A stretch of DNA of 64,000 bases, taken from assembly GCA_944376845.1 (NCBI GenBank), contig CALWDZ010000006.1, positions 964 through 64,963 on the forward strand, written 5' to 3'. Source of the DNA: an uncultured Clostridia bacterium. GTDB taxonomy: Bacteria > Bacillota > Clostridia > Christensenellales > UBA1242. Below the pieces are notes generated by a model that was given only the letters and a program-made list of their open reading frames with translations, did not search any database and was not told the DNA's origin. Shown here one piece after another: positions 2,691-46,600 of this stretch (position 1 is its first letter; each line of letters starts with the position of its first letter). Made by a program: the position numbers and the translations under genes.

Positions 2691-3075
2691 GATTTTTCGC
2701 TAAATTTATAGTCTTTTTGTTATTCTGAGACACCACAAGGTGTTGCGAGAATCTCTAAGTGGAAGAGATGCTCCCCTTCCTTAAATATTTCAGAGTGTAG
2801 GACAAATAAATCAGATTGCCGAAAAACAAGTGAGGCGAGGCTCGCAAAATGCACAAAAGCAGGAGTTTAGTGACCTAAATGACTTCGTCGAAACTCTCGC
2901 TTTATGGCTTAAAATTGCCAAATTGGCAATTTTTATTGCCTTTGCACTCGGTTTCTCCTCTCCCCAAAAAGTTTCCATAGGTACTTTTTGGGGCACCCCT
3001 GAATAGCGTTTTGCAGTAAACGAAGCAAGAAAAAATTTCTTATTTTTTTCGTTCACGCAGTTTTTCGACAGTCTG
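2691..3075 (+). repeat. Intergenic mosaic repeat cluster (A-type unit 2719-2755; ~105-bp D-type unit 2905-3010)
   Basis: gttattctgag..gcgagaatctc matches the A-type family. 2905-3010 aligns with 16046-16150, including the hairpin ccccaaaaagt/actttttgggg (2962-2972 / 2983-2993). Confidence 0.8.
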
Positions 3076-13547: not shown

Positions 13548-13685
13548 ATTTTATCATATTCTCCCTTTTTATAAAAACTTTTTTATATAAAAAAGAGTAA
13601 CACTTAAAATTTCTATTTTTCAATGTTTTGTGACAGTCTTTTGTTATTTGGTTATATAAAATATTTTTACTTAATAAAATACAAT

Positions 13686-14375
13686 ATGAAAATTTTAATT
13701 GTTAAGAAAAAGACAATTTGCATATTTTTGGCAATTTTGTTAATATTTTGTTCTATTTTGGGTATTTTTTATGCAGTGAGTGCAACTTCTTCGCCAAAAC
13801 ATAATTACACAGTTGTGGTGGATGCTGGGCACGGTGGTATTGATAATGGCTCAATAGGCTATGCGGGAACACTTGAAAGTGAGATAAATTTATGGTATGC
13901 AAACACATTAAAAGACTATTTAAGTCAGTTTGGTTTTAAAGTGGTTATGACTCGCTCAGACGACAATGGGCTTTATAGCCCATTTGCTCAAAATAAGAAA
14001 AAAGATGATATGCAGGCAAGACAAAAGATAATTGAGAAATCTAAGCCTGATATGGTTATAAGTATACATATGAATAGTTTTTCTCAGGTTTCATCTCGCG
14101 GTGCACAAGTCTTCTACGCAAAAGACAGCACGCTCGGGGAACTTTTAGCACAAAAAATTCAAGAACAGTTTAAAAAAACCCTTGTTAAACCAAGAAGTAG
14201 TTGCCAAGTTGGAGATTATTTTATAGTCAACTGCACATCTTACCCAAGTGTTATTGTGGAGTGTGGTTTTATTTCCAATCCTGAAGAAGAACAACTACTC
14301 TTAACAGAAGATTATAAAAACCAAGTTTGTTATAGTGTGGTTTGTGGAGTACTTTCTTATCTTATGGAAACGTGA
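13686..14375 (+). CDS. cwlD: N-acetylmuramoyl-L-alanine amidase (Amidase_3), CwlD-like with N-terminal membrane anchor
   Basis: The motifs 'VVVDAGHGGIDNGSIG', 'ISIHMNSF', 'GAQVFY' and 'VIVECGFISNPEE' are the Amidase_3 zinc-site signature. Size and N-terminal TM match CwlD. The start was moved to the internal ATG at 13686 (MKILIV..); the track ORF begins at 13623. Confidence 0.8.
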   Translation: MKILIVKKKTICIFLAILLIFCSILGIFYAVSATSSPKHNYTVVVDAGHGGIDNGSIGYAGTLESEINLWYANTLKDYLSQFGFKVVMTRSDDNGLYSPFAQNKKKDDMQARQKIIEKSKPDMVISIHMNSFSQVSSRGAQVFYAKDSTLGELLAQKIQEQFKKTLVKPRSSCQVGDYFIVNCTSYPSVIVECGFISNPEEEQLLLTEDYKNQVCYSVVCGVLSYLMET

Positions 14376-14690
14376 TTTCTCGCTTACGCTCGAAATGACA
14401 CCCACTTGCTATTCTGGATGTACATTTTTTGTCATTCTTGGCTACCTTTTGTCATTCTGAGCGAAGCGAAGAATCTCTTTAACTCAAGAAATCCAGCGGA
14501 GTGCCGAAAGCGCAGTTTTTGCCCAGTGTCATTCTGAGCCGAAGGCGAAGAATCTCAGGAAAAGAGATCCTTCGTCAGCCGTCAGGGAAGCGGTTCTCAG
14601 GATGACACTACGCCCCTGGTCATTCTGAGCGTCAGCGAAGAATCTCAAGGCCCTTTGCTCCGCTCAGGGTGACAGAGTGATGATTTAATA
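14376..14690 (+). repeat. Intergenic cluster of A-type hairpin repeats (units at 14451-14477, 14526-14608, 14619-14673, plus degenerate arms)
   Basis: gtcattctgagc..gaagaatctc recurs three times. Long hairpins pair gtgtcattctgag with ctcaggatgacac or cgctcagggtgac. Confidence 0.85.
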
Positions 14691-14748
14691 GTTTTAATTT
14701 AGATATAAAATATTATTTTTTTTAATTTGTTTATGATATAATATAATT

Positions 14749-15684
14749 ATGACAGTGCTTGAAATTGTTTTTTTAAGTTTATTTTTAGTTGTCGCAACTA
14801 TTGTGATATATCTTTTTATTTCCAGCGAAATTAAATATTGGTTGACGCTTAAAAAAGGTTGCTTATTTGGAACAATTATATATCGATATACAATAAAAAC
14901 ACAAAAAAAGTATAAAATTGACCTTTCTTGGTGGGAAACTCAAAAAGTTGAAGAAATAAATATTATTTCACACGATAAACTTAAATTGCAAGGTTATTTT
15001 TTGCATAAAGACGATAAAAAAATTGCAGTCGTTGTGCATGGTTATGGCACCTGCGCTTTTGCTATGCAACAATATGTAAAAATGTTTTTTGACTTTGGCT
15101 ACTCCGTGCTTGCAATTGATAATCGTGCACATGGTAAAAGCCAAGGCAAGTGCATAACAATGGGATATTTTGAGCATAAAGACCTGGCTTTATGGGTGGA
15201 TTATTTAGTTAAAAGATATAAAGATAGTGAAATTGTTGTTTTTGGACTAAGTATGGGCGGGGCGACTGTTTGCCTATATAGTGGAGACAAAAAACCAAAA
15301 AATGTAAAGGCAATTATTAGTGATTGCGGTTATTATAACGCCTATGATGTTGTACAAAATTTATGTGAGCAAAGTATTATTTTAAACTTTTTTCCTTCGC
15401 TTTTTGTTTATAATCAATATTTAAAATTGCGTGCAAAGTTTAAGTTATCAGATATAGATGTAAAATCTTCAATACAAAAATGCAATGTACCAATTCTTTT
15501 AATTCATGGTAGCCGTGATAAATTTGTACCTTTTTATATGCAAGAAGTGTTATATAAAAATGCACCACCATCGCTTTGCCAAAAATATGTAGTGCAGGGA
15601 GCGGGGCATGCTGAAAGTATGACAGTGGCGGGAGAAGATTATATAAATGCGGTTAAAAAATTTTTATCACCTATTATAAAGTAA
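14749..15684 (+). CDS. Alpha/beta-hydrolase fold protein with N-terminal TM anchor
   Basis: 311 aa. The nucleophile elbow 'GLSMGG', 'HGSRDKFVP' (Asp region) and 'GAGHA' (His) give an S-D-H triad order typical of alpha/beta hydrolases. Confidence 0.8.
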   Translation: MTVLEIVFLSLFLVVATIVIYLFISSEIKYWLTLKKGCLFGTIIYRYTIKTQKKYKIDLSWWETQKVEEINIISHDKLKLQGYFLHKDDKKIAVVVHGYGTCAFAMQQYVKMFFDFGYSVLAIDNRAHGKSQGKCITMGYFEHKDLALWVDYLVKRYKDSEIVVFGLSMGGATVCLYSGDKKPKNVKAIISDCGYYNAYDVVQNLCEQSIILNFFPSLFVYNQYLKLRAKFKLSDIDVKSSIQKCNVPILLIHGSRDKFVPFYMQEVLYKNAPPSLCQKYVVQGAGHAESMTVAGEDYINAVKKFLSPIIK

Positions 15685-15708
15685 AATCTTGTTACGCATA
15701 CTAAAAAT

Positions 15709-15900
15709 ATGGGTTACTATAACTATCATGCCAAGATTAAGCAAAAAATAAAAGACGGTGAACTTGTAAGATTTGAATTTGTAGATAATTACAAAAATTA
15801 TTCACCGTGTTTGGTTTTATATTTTAGCGATGGCAAAGTCTATCCAATAAAAGAATATATGTTTGATGAGTATTTACAATTGTTAGACATCAAAGATTGA
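15709..15900 (+). CDS. Small hypothetical protein (63 aa)
   Basis: ORF only, with no clear RBS. It is wedged between the hydrolase gene and a repeat cluster. Confidence 0.3.
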   Translation: MGYYNYHAKIKQKIKDGELVRFEFVDNYKNYSPCLVLYFSDGKVYPIKEYMFDEYLQLLDIKD

Positions 15901-16375
15901 ACGTTCTGTCCCTTCGCCTTACCTTCTGTCTTTCTGAGCCTTACCTTCGTGATGTGTCATTCTGAGCGTAGCGAAGAATCTCTTTAAGTCAAGAAATCCA
16001 GCGGATTTCTTCCATAGAGTCACGGCATCGTCAGAACCTACGCATATGGGCTAAAAATTGCTAGACGCAATTTGTATCGCCTTAATGCTTGGTTCTTCCT
16101 CTCCCCAAAAAGTTTCCATAGGTACTTTTTGGGGGCCCCGAAAAAGCAACGCAGTGCGGTTTTCGTTTGGCCGTGAGAAAAAGGGCACAAAACAAGCAAC
16201 AAGCACTACATTTTGCCGTTACTAAGGCAAAATTGTGCCGAAAGCGCGGTTTTTGCCCAGTGTCATTCTGAGCCGAAGGCGAAGAATCTCGAGACCCTTC
16301 GCTTCGCTCAGGGTGACACGGATTTGTGTTATTTTACGCTCAGGGTGACATCGGGTTGATTTTTTAAATGCTTAA
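15901..16375 (+). repeat. Intergenic mosaic repeat cluster (A-type 15956-15982 and 16260-16319; B hairpin 15991-16011; D-type 16046-16150; C module 16234-16259)
   Basis: It shares modules with 1-41, 2905-3010 and 14451-14560. 16260-16319 is a ~25-bp-stem hairpin (gtgtcattctgagccgaaggcgaag .. cttcgcttcgctcagggtgacac). Confidence 0.85.
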
Positions 16376-16393
16376 TGTTATACTTTTTCCATA

Positions 16394-17860
16394 ATGTTAA
16401 ATAGCACTAGAAAAAGTATAAGAAGATATGTACTAATTGCACTAAGTATTGCAATTATGATTTTGTTTAAATTTGTAGAACCGCCAAGTGGGCTTTCTTC
16501 AAATGCCATGGCGGTTGTTGGCGTTTTTTTAGGTACACTTATTTTATGGCTTTTTGTATCAATTGATTGGCCAAGCCTACTTTGTATTTTGATGCTTGGA
16601 ATACTTGCAAATTTGGACTTTAAAACACTTTTTTCTGCAAGTTTTGGTAGTGACACTTTTGTATTTTTGCTTTGTACATTTATTTGCACTTATGCTTTAA
16701 GCAAAACAAATATTGTCAAAAATATCGCAATTTGGTTTGTGTCAAACCGCTTAGCCAAAAAAGGACCTTGGTGGTTTGTAACAATGTTCTTTTTTAGCGT
16801 AATCTTTTTAGGATGTTTTATGTCGCCATCTGTACTTTTTGTTGTACTTTTGCCCATACTTGAAAGTATTTATAAAATTGCAGGTATAGAAAAAAATTCA
16901 AAAGTTTCAAGTATGCTCATGATGGGGCTTGCGTTTTGTGTTTCAATTTCCTCGGGTATGACACCTATTGCTCATGTCTTTCCAGTCATAAGTTTTGGAA
17001 TTTATGAACAAATTACCGGGGCTTCAATAAATTATGCGTCATATATGGCTATGGCAATTCCAGTTGGCATTGTTGTTACTATACTTATGATTTTAATGTT
17101 TAGAGTTATACTAAGACCAGACGTTGAAAAACTTAAAAATATAGATATAGATGCTCTAAAGCAACAAAAGCAAAAACTAAACAAAAGGGACATCATAACA
17201 CTTATTATATTTTGTGTTATGATTACAATTTGGGTTTTGCCAAGTTTACTACAAAATGTTTGGAATGAGTTTTATACACTGTTTAATGGTTATACAACGG
17301 CTTTTGCATCACTTGTGGGCGTCGTGCTTATGTGCATAGTCCACATAAATGGCAAACCAATAGTCAGTATAAAAGAAGCGACAAGTGGTGGAGTGCCATT
17401 TTCAAGCATTATTATGTGTGCGGGCACACTTGCTCTTTCAAGTGCCTTAACCAGTGACAGTATTGGGCTTGTTACATACATAACTCAAAATCTTTCCACT
17501 GTTTTAAGTTCACTTTCGCCATACCTTCTTGTGTGTATTTTTGCATTTTGGGCATTGCTTCAAACCAACTTTTCATCAAATATGGTTACAGCCACAGTTG
17601 TCACAACAGTTGCAGTACCAATAATTTTTGCAGTATCGCAAAGCGGAACAATAAATGTAACTGCTACGGTTGCCGCCATTGTTGGTATGCTTTCCGCCTA
17701 TGCATTTATGACACCACCAAGTATGCCGCATATTGCCATTGCAAGTGCAAGTGGTTGGTCAAATACAAAACATTTTTTGGTATATGGTACGATTTTAGCG
17801 ATATTTTCCTTGATTTTATCGGTAACTTTGGGATATTTTATAGGAATAGCACTTTTTTAG
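16394..17860 (+). CDS. DASS/SLC13-type anion:sodium symporter family permease (ArsB/NhaD superfamily)
   Basis: 488 aa and polytopic (12 or more hydrophobic segments). A central hydrophilic loop and duplicated halves match di/tricarboxylate or sulfate symporters. Confidence 0.65.
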   Translation: MLNSTRKSIRRYVLIALSIAIMILFKFVEPPSGLSSNAMAVVGVFLGTLILWLFVSIDWPSLLCILMLGILANLDFKTLFSASFGSDTFVFLLCTFICTYALSKTNIVKNIAIWFVSNRLAKKGPWWFVTMFFFSVIFLGCFMSPSVLFVVLLPILESIYKIAGIEKNSKVSSMLMMGLAFCVSISSGMTPIAHVFPVISFGIYEQITGASINYASYMAMAIPVGIVVTILMILMFRVILRPDVEKLKNIDIDALKQQKQKLNKRDIITLIIFCVMITIWVLPSLLQNVWNEFYTLFNGYTTAFASLVGVVLMCIVHINGKPIVSIKEATSGGVPFSSIIMCAGTLALSSALTSDSIGLVTYITQNLSTVLSSLSPYLLVCIFAFWALLQTNFSSNMVTATVVTTVAVPIIFAVSQSGTINVTATVAAIVGMLSAYAFMTPPSMPHIAIASASGWSNTKHFLVYGTILAIFSLILSVTLGYFIGIALF

Positions 17861-23532: not shown

Positions 23533-23612
23533 GTCATTCTGAGTCCTACGCCAAAGCGTCGACTTACGAAGAATCTCTAGACGTTTCGTTTCGCTCGACA
23601 ACATGACACGGG
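23533..23612 (+). repeat. A-type interspersed repeat unit
   Basis: gtcattctgag..cgaagaatctc..gctcgacaacatgacac, between convergent genes. Confidence 0.75.
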
Positions 23613-26140: not shown

Positions 26141-26232
26141 TGTCTTTCTGAGTATGCTTGTATGTCATTCTGAGCCGAAGGCGAAGAATCCCTTAGATGT
26201 CTCACTTCACTTGACACAACACGAAGGGATTT
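26141..26232 (+). repeat. A-type interspersed repeat units (degenerate plus full copy 26164-26190) in a divergent promoter region
   Basis: tgtctttctgag.. then gtcattctgagccgaaggcgaagaatc..cacttgacacaac. Confidence 0.75.
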
Positions 26233-26271
26233 GAAATGACAGCACTTTCTATTAAAAAGAAAGCGATGTGG

Positions 26272-27924: not shown

Positions 27925-28315
27925 ACTTTCAAAAATCGGCGTGATACTTTGTTCCTGTCGGGCAACTCTCACACAGTCACGTACGCTTTGTACGCTCCTG
28001 CGTGAGAGTACCCGCCGAGCCTCGTCTCACTTGTTTTTTGAAAGTCTATTTTTTAGATGTCTGTAAAAAGCGTCACAATACTTCGTTTGCTGTCAAGCAG
28101 GTTCACACAGTCATTTAGCAAACTAAACTCCTGCGTGAACCCACTTGCCGAGCCTCGTCTTGCTTGCTTTTTGCCAGTTTATAGCAAGTGGGGAAGCAAA
28201 ATTGTGGTTATGTATCCACGGCGTGATACTTTGTTCCTGTCGGGCAACTCTCACACAGTCATTTTTTGTCATTCTGAGTGTGGCTTCCTTGACGGCTGAC
28301 GAAGAATCTCATTTT
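27924..28315 (+). repeat. Intergenic mosaic repeat cluster: E-type long palindromic units (27924-28046, ~28066-28172, truncated 28222-28265) plus an A-type unit (28268-28310)
   Basis: ..ctgtcgggcaactctcacacagtca..ctcctgcgtgagagtacccgccgagcctcgtc.. recurs here and at 37668-37798 and 38168-38205. Unit 1 is closed by gactttcaaaaa / tttttgaaagtc. Confidence 0.85.
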
Positions 28316-30646: not shown

Positions 30647-30765
30647 TGTAAGATGCCTACTCTCCGTCAAGAAGGCAGTGGTCAGCAAGAGCACTCTACT
30701 ATGTCATTTCGAATACTCTATTTTGTCATTTCGAGCAAAGCGAGAAATCTTTCTGATAAAATAAT
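30647..30765 (+). repeat. A-type repeat units of the 'gtcatttcgag..gagaaatct' subfamily
   Basis: tgtcatttcgaatac (30702..) and gtcatttcgagcaaagcgagaaatct (30725-30750). The ATTTC/GAAAT stem covaries with ATTCT/AGAAT in the main subfamily. Confidence 0.75.
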
Positions 30766-37669: not shown

Positions 37670-38447
37670 AAAACACAAAATTGTGGGCGTCTGCGTCGTT
37701 TGCTGTCGGGCAACCCTCACACAGTCATTTGGGTGACCAAACTCCTGCGTGAGGGTACCCGCCGAGCCTAGCATCCGCCACGCAATTTTGTGTTTTTTGT
37801 TAGATTGAGCCTCGTTGTCGGGGCTATTATTGTATTTTATGAATAAGTACAGAGTACACTCAAGTTGGTTCGCACCGTTCTTTTTTGCCTTTTCCGCTTA
37901 CTTTTGCCTATTTTTTCTAGTTTTTATGATTATTTTAGTATTATTTTGTCATTCTGAGGCACCAAAGGTGCCGTGAGAATCTCAACATTTATAAATTTTA
38001 CGTGGCTTGATACCCCGAGCCTAGCATCCGTCACACAATTTTGTGTTTTTTGTTAGATTGAGCCTCGTTATCGGGGCTATTTTTGTGTTTTACTATTATG
38101 TACTCCTACTTTATCTATTTTGTATATTATTTTAATTTCTATAAACTCAACAGTTATTCATAATAGCCAAACTCCTGCGTGAGGGTACCCGCCGAGCCTA
38201 GCATCCGCCACACAATTTTGTGTTTTTTGTTAGATTGAGCCTCGTTATCGGGGCTATTTTTGTGTTTTACTGTTATGTACTCCTACTTTGGTCTATTTTT
38301 TCTAGTCTTTATGGTTATTTTAGTATTATTTTGTCATTCTGAGGCACCAAAGGTGCCGTGAGAATCTCAACTGATTTGAGTTGGTATTTTGCTTTTTGTT
38401 TAAAACACTTGCTAAATAATTCTAGATGTTTTATACTAACTATGTTA
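37668..38447 (+). repeat. Mosaic/tandem repeat region (E-type 37668-37798 and 38168-38205; F-type 37762-37828, 38015-38081, 38192-38258; A-type 37948-37983 and 38333-38368)
   Basis: There are three copies of ccgagcctagcatccg(c/t)cac(g/a)caattttgtgttttttgttagattgagcctcgtt(g/a)tcggggctatt. There are two copies of ..ttttctagt(t/c)tttatg(a/g)ttattttagtattattttgtcattctgaggcaccaaaggtgccgtgagaatctcaac. Confidence 0.9.
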
Positions 38448-38523
38448 GGGCAATTAACTCAGTTGGTAGAGTGTCACTTTGACGTAGTGGAAGTCAGGAG
38501 TTCGAGTCTCTTATTGCCCACCA
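38448..38523 (+). tRNA. tRNA-Val (anticodon GAC), CCA encoded
   Basis: Manual cloverleaf fold. Acceptor GGGCAAT/ATTGCCC is perfect, D stem ACTC/GAGT, anticodon stem TCACT/AGTGG with loop TTGACGT, T stem AGGAG/CTCTT with loop TTCGAGT, then A-CCA. Confidence 0.85.
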
Positions 38524-38611: not shown

Positions 38612-38646
38612 GTCATTCTGAGGCACTTTAGTGCCGTGAGAATCTC
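38612..38646 (+). repeat. A-type repeat unit
   Basis: gtcattctgaggcactttagtgccgtgagaatctc, with inner hairpin ggcac/gtgcc. Confidence 0.8.
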
Positions 38647-41500: not shown

Positions 41501-42218
41501 ATATGTAAAACCTAAAAAAAATAAAGATTTAATCGGCACCATATCTTCTATTGTACTGTTAGTTGCATTTTTGGTGCTTGCTTTTTTTGTTGGTGTAATG
41601 TTTTATTGCAATGTTGCACTTGGATATTATCCAATATCGGGAACTAGTATGCAACCACTCATAAACGCAAGCGGGTTAAATACTGATTATGTTTATGCTA
41701 CTTATGATGTATCAAATGTCACTTATGGTGATGTCATCATTTTTCATCATCCAGATGCCACACAAGCAAGTGGTTATAGACAAGTTATAAAACGCGTTAT
41801 CGCACTTGGCGGTGACAATGTGATGATTAAAAATACATTTCGTCTAGTTGAAAATACCGACCAGACCTATTATGCACTTTACATTCAGTATGGTGGTGAA
41901 GGTGAGTTCGTTGAAGTTGATGAAGATTATGTGATTGACAAAACATCATATCGTTCACTATACTTTGGTGATTTTTATGTAGATGATGACCACGATAAGA
42001 CATTTCTTTTTGATGAATATGGCAATCCTTACATTCATTTAGAAGAAGGACAAATCTTTTATGCGGGTGATAATAGATTAAACTCAAACGATTGCTTTGA
42101 TTATGGTCCTCAAGAAGTTTCAAATATCGTTGCTGAAGTTAGGTATATAATTTATGGGGGAACAAACAGAATTTGGCAAGTAATACTGCAAATGCTAGGA
42201 ATATATAAATGGAACTAG
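41487..42218 (+). CDS. lepB: Signal peptidase I (S26 family)
   Basis: 243 aa. N-terminal TM, catalytic Ser box 'ISGTSMQPLI', Lys box 'VIKRVIALGGDNV', 'GDNRLNSNDCFDYG'. TTG start with AAGGAGAG RBS. Confidence 0.8.
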   Translation: MKYAKYVKPKKNKDLIGTISSIVLLVAFLVLAFFVGVMFYCNVALGYYPISGTSMQPLINASGLNTDYVYATYDVSNVTYGDVIIFHHPDATQASGYRQVIKRVIALGGDNVMIKNTFRLVENTDQTYYALYIQYGGEGEFVEVDEDYVIDKTSYRSLYFGDFYVDDDHDKTFLFDEYGNPYIHLEEGQIFYAGDNRLNSNDCFDYGPQEVSNIVAEVRYIIYGGTNRIWQVILQMLGIYKWN

Positions 42219-43303
42219 AAAAAATAGAACTTTATAACTTTCGCAATTACAAAAGCGCAAGCATAAGTTTTGATAGTGGCTTAAATGTTATCTGTGCAGA
42301 AAACGCACAGGGAAAAACCAATTTACTTGAAGCCATCTATTTTTGTGTTGTCGGAAAAAGTTTTCGTGCAACTAGAGAACGTGAAGTCATAAATATGCAA
42401 AGTGATATTGCAAAAATAAAAGTTTTTATTAAAAAGAATGTTGGAAAAAGCATAATTGAAATCATTTTTTCAAGAAAAGAAAAGAAAACTGTAAAAATTG
42501 ATGGCATTCCTATTAAAAGGCTTAGCGGATTACTTGGTGAGTTTAATGGTGTTTTTTTTGCGCCTGATGAACTAAAACTTATAAAAGAAAGTCCAGAAGA
42601 TAGACGACGATTTATGGACATAGATATTTCGCAAACAACCAAACAATATGTTTATATACTTTCACGCTATAATGAAATTTTGGCGAATAGAAACAAACAA
42701 TTAAAACAAAATATATCACGCCATGACCTTGAAAATATTATAAGTATTTGGGATGAACAACTTGCTGATTACGCACAAAAAATCAAAAAATATAGGCAAA
42801 ATTTTGTAATTTCGCTTTTGCCATATGCAAAAAAAGCACACGAATTTATTACCGACGGGAAAGAAGACCTTCGTGTTGAATATGTTACCATTAAAGAAAA
42901 CACAAAAGAAGAGATAATAAATAAACTAAAAACCAATTTAGAAAAAGATATTGCACTTGGTTACACAACCTATGGTGTGCATCGCGATGATATAAAGGTT
43001 ACAATAAATGGTGTTGATGTAAGGTCATATGGTTCACAAGGACAACAACGAACCGCGGCACTTTCGTTAAAACTTGCAGAACTTAGTATTATTGAAGAGA
43101 TAACACATACAAGGCCAGTACTACTACTTGATGATGTTTTAAGTGAACTTGACGATTCAAGAAAAAAACGTCTTCTAAAATATTGCCAGGGAACACAAAC
43201 GTTTATAACCTGTACAGCATTTAATTATCCCGATATAAAATGTAATAAGATAGAAATAAAAAATGGTGAGTGGAGTAAAATCGAACAATCTCAAAGTGTA
43301 TGA
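42209..43303 (+). CDS. recF: DNA replication and repair protein RecF
   Basis: 364 aa. 'LYNFRNY', Walker A 'AENAQGKTNLLEA', signature 'GSQGQQRTAALSLKLAE', Walker B 'VLLLDDVLSELD'. Confidence 0.9.
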   Translation: MELEKIELYNFRNYKSASISFDSGLNVICAENAQGKTNLLEAIYFCVVGKSFRATREREVINMQSDIAKIKVFIKKNVGKSIIEIIFSRKEKKTVKIDGIPIKRLSGLLGEFNGVFFAPDELKLIKESPEDRRRFMDIDISQTTKQYVYILSRYNEILANRNKQLKQNISRHDLENIISIWDEQLADYAQKIKKYRQNFVISLLPYAKKAHEFITDGKEDLRVEYVTIKENTKEEIINKLKTNLEKDIALGYTTYGVHRDDIKVTINGVDVRSYGSQGQQRTAALSLKLAELSIIEEITHTRPVLLLDDVLSELDDSRKKRLLKYCQGTQTFITCTAFNYPDIKCNKIEIKNGEWSKIEQSQSV

Positions 43304-43365
43304 GATGCTTCGTCAGCCGTCAGGAGAGCAAATCTCAGCATGACACATTTAAGTCATTCTGAGGA
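43304..43365 (+). repeat. Interspersed repeat modules (G-type cttcgtcagccgtcagg; A-type arms)
   Basis: gatgcttcgtcagccgtcaggagagcaaatctcagcatgacac resembles 14568-14608. gtcattctgagg (43353-43364) overlaps the stop of the - strand acyltransferase gene. Confidence 0.7.
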
Positions 43366-44205: not shown

Positions 44206-44317
44206 GGTAATATAAGTATATCAAATTTTAACAAGTTGTCAAACACAAACCAATAAATGTTTGACTTTATGTCGCACATATATTATTATATTTAATAAGA
44301 TATTTAAGGAGAAAATT

Positions 44318-45442
44318 ATGGGTCTTTTTAATTTTATAAAAAAACAATTACTTGAAGTCATTGAGTGGAAAGATAGTTCAAAGGATACAATCGTTTATCG
44401 TTTTCCATTAACTGATAGAGATGAAATAATGACATCATCTACTTTGGTTGTTCGTGAAAGCCAAGTGGCAATATTTGTCCATAAAGGTGAAGTGGCAGAT
44501 GTTTTTCAGCCAGGTACATACAAACTTTCAACCGAGAACATACCATTTTTAACAAAAATTTTATCACTTCCAACAGGGTTTGAATCACCAATAAAGGCAG
44601 AAGTATATTTTGTCAACACAAAGCAGTTTGTTGGGCAAAAGTGGGGCACACAAAACCCAATAATGATGCGTGATAGCGAGTTTGGAACGGTTAGACTTCG
44701 TGGCTTTGGTGTTTATTCATTTAGAGTTAGTGATGCAAAACTTTTTATGAAAGAAGTTTTTGGTACAAATGAAGTTTATAAAGTTGAAGATGTTGCAACC
44801 CAAATCAAACCTATGCTCATTCAAGCAGTAACTGATGCAATTGCAGAAAGCAAAATTTCCGCCATTGACCTTGCTGCAAACTATAGAGAGTTTTCAAATG
44901 AAATTTTGAAATCTAGCGAACTTGAATTTTCAAAGTACGGGCTTAAACTTTGTAGCGTTGTAATTGAAAATCTTTCACTTCCAGAAGATGTTGAAAAGGC
45001 TCTTGACGAAAGGACAAAACTTGGAGTGCTTGAAGATAAAATGGGTACATACACTCAATATCAAGCGGCACAAGCAATACGTGATGCTGCACAAAATGAA
45101 AGCGGTGGAAATCTTGCTGGGCTTGGTGTAGGACTTGGTGCGGGTACAACCATTGGCGGAGTTTTTGCAAATAACATAACAACAGAAAATAAGCCAAAGG
45201 AAAAAACCACAACTTGTGAAAAATGCGGTGCCAAAATGCGTGAAGGTGCAAAGTTCTGCCCAGAGTGTGGAGCACCTCAAGGTGCTGTTTGTCCAAAATG
45301 TGGAAAGGCGGTTTCCAAAAATGCAAAGTTCTGCCCAGAATGCGGTGAGAATTTGAAAAAAGAAATAGTGTGCAAAAAGTGTGGTGCAAAAATTAAAAAA
45401 GGTGCAAAGTTCTGTCCAGAATGTGGCACAAAAGTGGAATAA
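44318..45442 (+). CDS. SPFH/band-7-like protein with three C-terminal zinc-ribbon repeats (YdjI/COG4260-like)
   Basis: The start is set at MGLFNFIKKQ.. with AAGGAGAA RBS (the track ORF begins at 44261). The N-terminal ~300 aa resemble YdjI-type SPFH proteins. The C-terminus has 3x 'C.KCG...(K/R).(G/N)AKFCPECG'. Confidence 0.7.
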   Translation: MGLFNFIKKQLLEVIEWKDSSKDTIVYRFPLTDRDEIMTSSTLVVRESQVAIFVHKGEVADVFQPGTYKLSTENIPFLTKILSLPTGFESPIKAEVYFVNTKQFVGQKWGTQNPIMMRDSEFGTVRLRGFGVYSFRVSDAKLFMKEVFGTNEVYKVEDVATQIKPMLIQAVTDAIAESKISAIDLAANYREFSNEILKSSELEFSKYGLKLCSVVIENLSLPEDVEKALDERTKLGVLEDKMGTYTQYQAAQAIRDAAQNESGGNLAGLGVGLGAGTTIGGVFANNITTENKPKEKTTTCEKCGAKMREGAKFCPECGAPQGAVCPKCGKAVSKNAKFCPECGENLKKEIVCKKCGAKIKKGAKFCPECGTKVE

Positions 45443-46519: not shown

Positions 46520-46600
46520 AATAAAATTTTGTATATCTAATGACACCGTTGTGTCTTGTCGAGCCATAGGCGAGATTCTTTTACAGTCATAAGTTTCCTT
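46520..46600 (-). repeat. Partial interspersed repeat in inverse orientation
   Basis: The reverse complement (..aaagaatctcgcctatggctcgacaagacac..) resembles 23568-23609. Confidence 0.55.

Follow-up and report, generated by a model that had tools for sequence, protein, structure and literature searches.

About half of the dRS3 repeats of Neisseria were described by Chenal et al. (Nat Commun 2025; PMC11893778) as an oriented 28-nucleotide (nt) hairpin, NTS (CGTCATTCCCGCGMAVGCGGGAATCYRG), and NTS-like Ssn-related motifs (SRM) were found across phyla to flank ssnA, a gene encoding a single-domain GIY-YIG protein of 94 amino acids (aa). SsnA cleaves a few nt upstream of the hairpin to which it binds, acts on sense-strand single-stranded DNA (ssDNA) only and is inactive on double-stranded DNA, RNA and the reverse strand (PMC11893778). 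The three nt 5' of the palindrome, GTC, are critical for cleavage and the C after the palindrome for binding; the identity of the loop is dispensable, and extensions at the loop position of a split two-oligonucleotide substrate still permit cleavage (PMC11893778). The NTS-ssnA-NTS arrangement is insertion-sequence-like, the system reduces transformation by NTS-bearing DNA, and the enzymes characterised biochemically are those of N. meningitidis, N. elongata, N. wadsworthii and Wolbachia pipientis (PMC11893778). Here, a family of short hairpin repeats was analysed in 64,000 nt of DNA from an uncultured Clostridia bacterium (contig CALWDZ010000006.1, positions 964 to 64,963 of the forward strand; the whole stretch is called the window), for which the original prediction, made from the letters of the sequence, had proposed selection at the RNA level or an uncharacterised small structured RNA. 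The repeats are best read as a sub-type of SRM (generalised NTS/dRS3), the kind described in 2025, and not as a new structured RNA.

The repeat unit is a module of 27-45 nt with the layout (T)GTC-A-NNNN-GA-[inner GC helix and loop, often GCGNAGC]-GA-N'N'N'N'-T-CTC. The canonical 27-nt copy GTCATTCTGAGCGAAGCGAAGAATCTC (14451..14477, + strand; fold ...(((((..((...))..)))))...) consists of a 5-base-pair (bp) stem, a tandem G.A/A.G and a GCGAAGC mini-hairpin, and was the top match in the window (48.8 bits, E = 5.5e-9) of a covariance model built from almost wholly non-window sequences, whose scores are quoted below. With the SRM/NTS frame, H-GTC-W-Y...stem...R-N-C-Y, the window modules share the oriented hairpin with its 5' GTC and the C that immediately follows the stem, and like SRM/NTS they are multi-copy, intergenic and often clustered around genes. 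GTCA followed by T or C opens 17 of the 18 solid window modules (the remaining one starts with GTTA), T stands at position -1 in 16 of 21 modules (18 solid and 3 degenerate), and all solid modules end in ...A/G-T-C followed by T or C, which fits the 3' frame R-N-C-Y-N-B. The two types differ in the stem, which in NTS is continuous over 8-9 bp and in the present, G.A-type module is broken by the invariant tandem G.A/A.G and capped by a mini-hairpin or a long insert (up to 43 nt in the longest cases), and in the 3' tail, TCYRG in NTS and TCTC here.

Exact matches to the 5' half GTCATTCTGAG were found 12 times on the + strand and not once on the - strand of the window; at up to two mismatches, 27 matches were obtained against 13.0 +/- 3.3 in shuffled sequence, with 0 of 100 shuffles reaching 27. 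The covariance model returned 13 window matches at E < 0.02, with long-insert and degenerate copies scoring weaker. All 18 solid copies are intergenic, falling in ten intergenic regions within the ~15% of the window outside open reading frames (ORFs) of >=100 aa. Of the original prediction of about 15 intergenic copies, each start position carries a full or partial copy, the units are indeed richer in GC than their surroundings (0.41-0.63 vs ~0.33 for the window), and "interspersed hairpin family" resembling repetitive extragenic palindromes (REP) or miniature inverted-repeat transposable elements (MITE) is a fair description. The inverted partial unit proposed at 46520-46600 is not supported by the covariance model, which has no match there at E <= 10. 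Window sequence was also present in Logan short-read contigs of sample ERR4096478, where one contig (L001) corresponds to 14528-16018 and another (L122) stops at 37699. As these public contigs end inside or beside the repeat regions (14528, 16018, 37699), the repeats fragment assemblies of the window organism, which is the usual assembly behaviour of multi-copy repeats.

Solid modules lie 13 times on the + and five times on the - strand (14372-14399, 14564-14606, 14647-14673, 16291-16317 and 43302-43344); degenerate - strand modules are located at 16336-16349, 23578-23607 and 26226-26240. Among solitary modules the split is 8:2, judged not significant. Every 5' arm had been placed on the + strand earlier, with CTCAGGGTGAC and similar sequences taken as 3' arms of long hairpins. 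These sequences are complete - strand modules with their own self-complementary stems; the strand rule therefore holds for exact GTCATTCTGAG and fails for the units, the + bias of the window stems in part from inverted modules having been labelled "arms", and the long hairpins are head-to-head module pairs. Such inverted pairs do fold, the covarying unit being the hairpin inside each module and not the arm-to-arm stem. Five stem types occur among the window modules, with ACCCT/AGGGT at 16291-16317 and 14647-14673 (-), ATCCT/AGGAT at 14564-14606 (-), ATGCT/AGCAT at 43302-43344 (-) and ATTTC/GAAAT at 14372-14399 (-) and 30725 (+). The change from ATTCT/AGAAT to ATTTC/GAAAT, already recognised in the first reading, is genuinely compensatory.

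The long pairs fold at -29 to -36 kcal/mol as RNA (z -4.3 to -5.8). T opposite G in their outer stem, from which a strand-specific G:U asymmetry had been deduced, results where an ATTCT module stands opposite an ACCCT module, and the inner half of the same pair places A opposite C on the same strand. The pair 16261-16318 folds equally on both strands (-31.4 kcal/mol as RNA, -16.5 as DNA), so that no net strand effect results; in the other two long hairpins of the original prediction the strands differ by 3-7 kcal/mol as RNA.

For the distribution beyond the window, one-genome-per-species contigs were scanned with GTCANNNNGAGCGNAGCGANNNNTCTC, in which eight N positions are free, and at least 120 loci were obtained. 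The matches listed are from Chloroflexota, Acidobacteriota, Bacteroidota, Nitrospirota, Omnitrophota, Saccharibacteria, Verrucomicrobiota, Planctomycetota, Gemmatimonadota, Proteobacteria and Bacillota, and from one metagenome-assembled genome (MAG) of Nanoarchaeota. All four free stem pairs are Watson-Crick in 135 of the 157 matches listed, with at least 12 stem types. Across 40 distinct sequences, changes on both sides of the stem amounted to 41 cells, compared with 9.8 +/- 3.9 after shuffling (0 of 500 shuffles reached 41), and pairing dropped from 97% to 11-54% in slid controls. The common layout in other genomes is module(+), a spacer of 8-85 nt and module(-). In 18 such pairs, 137 of 144 positions paired within the arms and 123 of 144 from arm to arm, and seven pairs combine arms with unlike stems, each arm being fully self-complementary. 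In a set of 705 distinct modules, T occupies position -1 in 88%, C in 9% and G in 2%, followed by GTC-A-Y; the stem is followed by T-C, which the module finder used here required, then by T (90%) and C (79%), and positions -2 to -9 are pyrimidine-rich. These flanks fit HGTCWY...RNCYNB, the outer portions of the SRM search string as published. In IMG/VR viral contigs (L203-L442) the canonical NTS and the G.A-type pattern were each found at at least 120 loci. One of these G.A-type loci (L425) has an Ssn homologue 56 nt from a module; the contigs may be true phage genomes or host DNA included by proviral prediction.

An all-against-all blastp of the ORFs from the 120 module loci listed gave no recurrent neighbour gene, and the link to GIY-YIG genes was seen only after loci were anchored on the protein. 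The same 120 loci contain two small GIY-YIG genes, both touching modules: one, of 96 aa, lies exactly between a (+) and a (-) module (L093), and the end of the other falls inside a module (L069). Metagenome anchoring on a ~92-aa GIY-YIG protein yielded 571 confirmed relatives in 600 candidate stretches, of which 80 loci (178 kb) were retained; with a strict finder, 258 G.A-type modules were detected in them and 0 in dinucleotide shuffles. Where enough flank was available on both sides, a module lies within 150 nt of the gene in 61 of 66 loci and on both sides in 40 of 66 (median gap 32 nt), usually one on each side and pointing inwards. As NTS and SRM flank ssnA, G.A modules flank GIY-YIG genes of 90-96 aa on both sides and in inverted orientation in these related loci, many of which also hold tandem arrays of gene-less pairs. 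The partner proteins, putative members of the Ssn family cd10448, are single-domain GIY-YIG proteins of ~90-96 aa (PF01541, E = 5e-15), for which the closest solved structure, the UPF0213 protein 1ZG2, is a weak match. A profile of the 80 G.A-associated proteins matched GIY-YIG ORFs located 20-42 nt from canonical NTS in IMG/VR at E = 1e-27 to 1e-31, and the two groups are homologous over their full length, with 52% identity.

The core of the short modules has a counterpart in DNA physical chemistry. Among 109 modules from the anchored loci with an inner element of 7-8 nt, 74 have exactly GCGNAGC or GCGNNAGC, and the mini-hairpin elements of the window are GCGAAGC, GCGTAGC, GCGTCAGC and GCGTAAGC. 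GCGNAGC/GCGNNAGC is the consensus of an extraordinarily stable DNA mini-hairpin (PMC13037366), and d(GCGNAGC)/d(GCGNNAGC) is the exact inner element of most short modules. The mini-hairpin (PMC13037366) is a physical-chemistry observation and not a repeat family, whereas here the element sits inside a larger, oriented and protein-linked module.

Most probably, the window copies are gene-less derivatives of module-ssn-module units, and any activity they have would be that of ssDNA hairpins recognised by an Ssn nuclease. A module would fold on itself when the DNA becomes single-stranded, e.g. at replication forks, during recombination or during DNA uptake, and, by analogy with the characterised enzymes, the cognate Ssn would recognise the sense-oriented hairpin through the GTC 5' of the stem and the C just after it. 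The full unit elsewhere is module(+) - ssn gene - module(-), an insertion-sequence-like arrangement, and the window holds only derivatives that lack the gene: modules in inverted pairs, modules standing alone and 5' half-modules, in places grouped to either side of a gene. We infer further that a dedicated Ssn cleaves the G.A sub-type, that module-ssn-module units are mobile or selfish elements, and that the nuclease is encoded in the genome of the window organism.

Several results weigh against an Ssn-related origin. The published SRM string, HGTCWYN(0-2)YYVSBRHN(0-5)WNVSBRGN(0-2)RNCYNB, has 0 matches in the window, and in the 80 ssn loci it matches 3 sites (1 expected by chance) vs 258 G.A modules; three window modules tested singly fail it, and canonical NTS passes. 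Membership hence depends on the frame common to both types and on the linked gene, and not on the published definition. The string misses G.A modules because it assumes a continuous stem, the failure being located in the G.A/A.G loop and not in the flanks. Moreover, tblastn and profile searches (best E = 0.13) gave no ssn homologue in the 64-kb window, and the searched literature yielded no report of cleavage of the G.A sub-type. A single 27-nt module reaches only -1.9 kcal/mol as DNA with z ~0 in nearest-neighbour models, and z is likewise ~0 for single modules under standard DNA and RNA parameters, for which reason the structural case rests on covariation.

The missing ssn gene also makes it a real, if rather unlikely, possibility that the copies are inert relics, descended from Ssn elements whose cognate nuclease was lost or never encoded here, and now decaying passengers spread by local duplication and recombination. 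Degenerate or truncated copies (16336, 23578, 26226, 43353) and the half-modules would fit this, as would copies inside larger duplicated blocks (repeat families D5 and D16, and the ~385-nt duplication at 37.7-38.4 kb); among genomes with >200 SRMs, 19% have no detectable ssnA homologue, whereas 81% carry ssnA (PMC11893778). On the other hand, in many window copies both stem and frame are perfect, three copies begin with the same 28 nt (family D15), suggesting recent copying or conservation, and the 64 kb represent only a small part of a genome. Function at the RNA level, as a 3'-end stabiliser, terminator, processing site or small structured RNA, is very unlikely. Most window modules are sense on the + strand, as are most genes, and these two biases cannot be separated; the long pairs fold well as RNA at the energies given above, the stem covariation fits RNA equally, and hairpins of the REP type secondarily stabilise the mRNA upstream of them. 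However, when modules were compared with the gene whose 3' end precedes them in the 120 loci listed, 72 agreed in orientation and 70 disagreed (solitary modules, 24 and 25). Since orientation relative to neighbouring genes is thus random elsewhere, RNA-level selection is unsupported, and essentially both findings named in the original prediction as telling against it were made, i.e. random orientation and a match to a described repeat (SRM, NTS/dRS3-type). T-tract terminators are absent from the hairpins, with no terminator-like site on + strand hairpins in 14300-16450; divergent genes flank some of the copies (26164), the best pair is equally stable on both strands, the inner loop often has the DNA mini-hairpin consensus, and the consistently linked gene is a nuclease whose characterised relative acts on ssDNA only and ignores RNA. 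Rfam at gathering thresholds returned only two tRNAs in the window, and a permissive scan of 14300-16450 gave chance-level matches of <=17 bits, in line with the earlier statement that this is not a named Rfam motif. A secondary effect of the modules on transcripts is possible.

Mobilisation of the repeats as REP/REPIN by a RAYT (an IS200/IS605-like tyrosine transposase), or as a classical MITE by a DDE transposase, is extremely improbable, for all that the inverted doublets with alternative arms resemble REPIN/BIME, the copies are intergenic, GC-rich and multi-copy, and the pair ends TGTCA...TGACA resemble terminal inverted repeats. The defining head of a REP is typically GTAG, whereas the modules have (T)GTC-A at the 5' flank. 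Beside the modules the GIY-YIG gene recurs and no transposase family does, no recurrent transposase-like neighbour having been found among 4,119 ORFs of the 120 loci listed, without a dedicated Y1 profile search; target-site duplications were not seen by eye, and a DDE transposase would give no reason for covariation within arms. REPs are species-specific, in contrast to the module sequence, which is conserved across phyla, and the partner enzyme is an HUH/Y1 transposase in the case of RAYT and a GIY-YIG nuclease in the case of the modules. REP/BIME/REPIN sequences (Nunvar et al. 2010, PMC2817692; Bertels et al. 2017, PMC5581495) are likewise short GC-rich extragenic palindromes that fold in ssDNA, form inverted doublets with two arm variants and flank a small single-copy nuclease/transposase gene, and are regarded as a domesticated or selfish system. 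In IS200/IS605 elements, too, imperfect ssDNA hairpins near the ends are recognised and cut a short distance 5' (comparison taken from PMC11893778); these elements carry TnpA/TnpB and have distinct left and right ends, whereas here no TnpA/TnpB gene is found and the ends are inverted copies of one module. Separately, a hammerhead-like reading (GUC, CUGA, GAA), checked by eye, was rejected for wrong core spacing and the lack of stem I, a K-turn for the lack of a 3-nt bulge, and an integron attC site for the absence of R''/R' boxes. Literature searches for the literal repeat sequence gave primer coincidences only.

Returning to the reading as Ssn-related motifs, truncated 5' half-modules occur in addition to full modules. 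In the window they start at 14431, 15928, 26142 and 30703, 20-28 nt upstream of a full module, and have the pattern GTCWYYCTGAG plus ~8-10 pyrimidine-rich nt. Elsewhere, in many phyla, they lie 18-24 nt, mostly 21 nt, upstream of a full module (loci L005, L006, L013, L025, L033, L035, L065, L075, L082, L102-L104, L123, L136, L144, L146 and L152), and in L035 the half-module is stuttered several times. Their excess over the distance control is modest (36 vs 19 of 465). The half-modules could be the footprint of cleavage and repair, or of copying. We tentatively suggest, as a possibility somewhat short of even, that G.A-type modules are a distinct major class of Ssn targets with its own Ssn clade (...REKQIKGWLRAKK...) in well over ten phyla, a Nanoarchaeota MAG included, missed by the published string and perhaps undescribed so far, with the half-modules as a copying footprint of the module-ssn-module unit, left where a cut upstream of GTC was repaired aberrantly or led to template switching. 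This class may be characterised by the tandem sheared G.A pair and the GCGNAGC mini-hairpin, and may tolerate inserts up to ~43 nt.

One cluster of window copies starts with a - strand module at 14372..14399 (sense GTCATTTCGAGCGTAAGCGAGAAATCAC, stem ATTTC/GAAAT, inner GCGTAAGC of the GCGNNAGC type; 30.4 bits, E = 8e-5), which overlaps by 4 nt the stop codon of an amidase gene (13623-14375). It is followed by the half-module GTCATTCTTGG (14431..14441, +), 20 nt upstream of the canonical module at 14451, and by two inverted pairs. In the first, the left arm at 14528..14556 (+; 36.4 bits) has a 3-bp inner helix (GCCGAAGGC) and shares its first 28 nt with the copies at 16261 and 26163 (repeat families D15 and D16); the right arm at 14564..14606 (-; 12.2 bits, partial) has the stem ATCCT/AGGAT and a 25-nt inner insert ending in CCTGACGGCTGAC, and shares family D20 with the copy at 43302. 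In the second, a module with inner GCGTCAGC (GCGNNAGC type) at 14619..14646 (+; 38.5 bits, E = 1e-6) is directly abutted by its right arm at 14647..14673 (-; stem ACCCT/AGGG(C), 20.1 bits, E = 0.018). On the far side of a hydrolase gene (14749-15684) and a small ORF, which are bracketed by module clusters, lie the half-module GTCTTTCTGAG (15928..15938, +), the module GTCATTCTGAGCGTAGCGAAGAATCTC 28 nt downstream of it (15956..15982, +; 47.2 bits), and the cleanest inverted pair, composed of 16262..16290 (+; stem ATTCT/AGAAT, 36.4 bits) and GTCACCCTGAGCGAAGCGAAGGGTCTC at 16291..16317 (-; stem ACCCT/AGGGT, 46.5 bits, E = 1.8e-8). An isolated 5' half of a - strand module, GTCACCCTGAGCGT, was recognised by its sequence at 16336..16349. 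A repeat-gene-repeat layout is likewise found in Neisseria, where it was proposed to modulate recombination.

The remaining copies are more scattered. At 2719..2755 (+; 14.6 bits, E = 0.32) a variant module has GTT for GTC, inner ACACC-ACAA-GGTGT and an internal loop GAG/TGCG. Between convergent genes, 23533..23577 (+) is a left arm with a 27-nt inner insert and the exact GTCATTCTGAG...CGAAGAATCTC frame, which the covariance model does not find because of the long insert; its degenerate right arm follows at 23578..23607 (-; 8.5 bits, E = 7.9; family D11). A half-module GTCTTTCTGAG (26142..26152, +) precedes by 22 nt the left arm at 26164..26192 (+; 33.8 bits), a module between divergent genes, and a degenerate right arm, GGGATTTGAAATGAC on the + strand, is located at 26226..26240 (-; 11.6 bits, E = 1.6). 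The module at 28268..28310 (+; 15.9 bits) has a 25-nt inner insert ending in TTGACGGCTGAC and comes directly after a truncated copy of the B-type repeat described below. The half-module GTCATTTCGA (30703..30712, +) lies 22 nt upstream of a module with stem ATTTC/GAAAT and inner GCAAAGC (30725..30751, +; 38.6 bits). A sub-family with the inner hairpin GCACC-AAA-GGTGC is represented at 37948..37983 (+; 22.9 bits; DNA fold -7.5 kcal/mol, z = -3.8), in a duplicated ~385-nt block, and at 38333..38368 (+; 22.9 bits), both in family D5 with 95% identity over 88 nt; a third member (GCAC-TTTA-GTGC) lies at 38612..38646 (+; 23.0 bits), downstream of the tRNA at 38448-38520. Finally, 43302..43344 (-; 10.7 bits, partial; family D20), with stem ATGCT/AGCAT and an insert ending in CCTGACGGCTGAC, lies in the gap of a convergent gene pair and reaches into the stop codon of 42209-43303, and an isolated 5' half-module GTCATTCTGAG was found at 43353..43363 (+; 9.8 bits).

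Further repeats were observed in the window. The B-type repeat, GTCA-[5-bp stem]-[4-5 nt loop]-[stem']-CTCC, occurs at 27963-28012, 28102-28142 and 37712-37755 (+) and at 2863-2883 (-), and its GTCA...CTC frame is common to the modules described above (A-type). An outer stem, C.CTCACAC...GCGTGAG.G, encloses each of the three copies on the + strand, and compensatory changes between copies are found in the inner stems (CGTAC/GTACG, TTTAG/CTAAA, TTTGG/CCAAA) as well as in the outer ones (CTCTCAC/GTGAGAG, GGTTCAC/GTGAACC, CCCTCAC/GTGAGGG). A test for simple-stem modules of the B-type (GTCA-5 bp-loop-5 bp-CTC) around the examined Ssn clade showed no enrichment, with 1 match in 80 loci. Between lysS and a tRNA, 37685-38370 is a segmental tandem duplication with a period of ~385-430 nt in which fragments of the B-type are found together with A-type modules; repeat family D1 is present in three copies (114 nt) and family D5 in two (88 nt, 95% identity) in this region. 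A GC-rich intergenic repeat of 73 nt (85% identity), including the hairpin CTCCCCAAAAAGTTTCCATAGGTACTTTTTGGGG, is present at 2926-2998 and 16067-16139, both copies near A-type clusters. Within the ORF 44261-45442, three tandem repeats of ~75-80 nt (45219-45426) code for CxxC...CPxC zinc-ribbon-like units.

Outside the window, seven identical modules form a perfect tandem array with a period of 105 nt in a Bacteroidaceae MAG (L009, 3563-4219). In a Bacteroidales MAG (L037, 2764-2840) a module pair is apparently in frame within a sigma-54-activator-like ORF (...RELQNCIEKAVILSEAKNL...), the module's GTCATTCTGAGC falling on the conserved AVILS motif of the sigma-54 activator family; sigma-54 activators were the most recurrent neighbour family, in 8 of the 120 loci listed. 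In five loci of Acidobacteriota (L007, L011, L015, L044, L053) a conserved block ending in ...caggctgcggaaaaa lies ~8-13 nt upstream of the module, which suggests a larger, lineage-specific composite repeat.

For annotation, the present signature is useful because repeats of this type are currently translated into spurious small ORFs, and it can be used for mining pairs of Ssn and hairpin as programmable ssDNA-cutting tools. For the biology of the family, the repeats, at first considered as perhaps a new structured RNA, are now placed with the DNA component of the Ssn ssDNA-nuclease system, and the published picture is extended by a very widespread G.A variant that lies outside the motif definition and has a simple, searchable signature, in which the stem is free to vary and the flanks and the G.A/mini-hairpin core are fixed. 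If the G.A modules are indeed a class of their own, the published Ssn/SRM census would be an underestimate, since its search string misses this class systematically.

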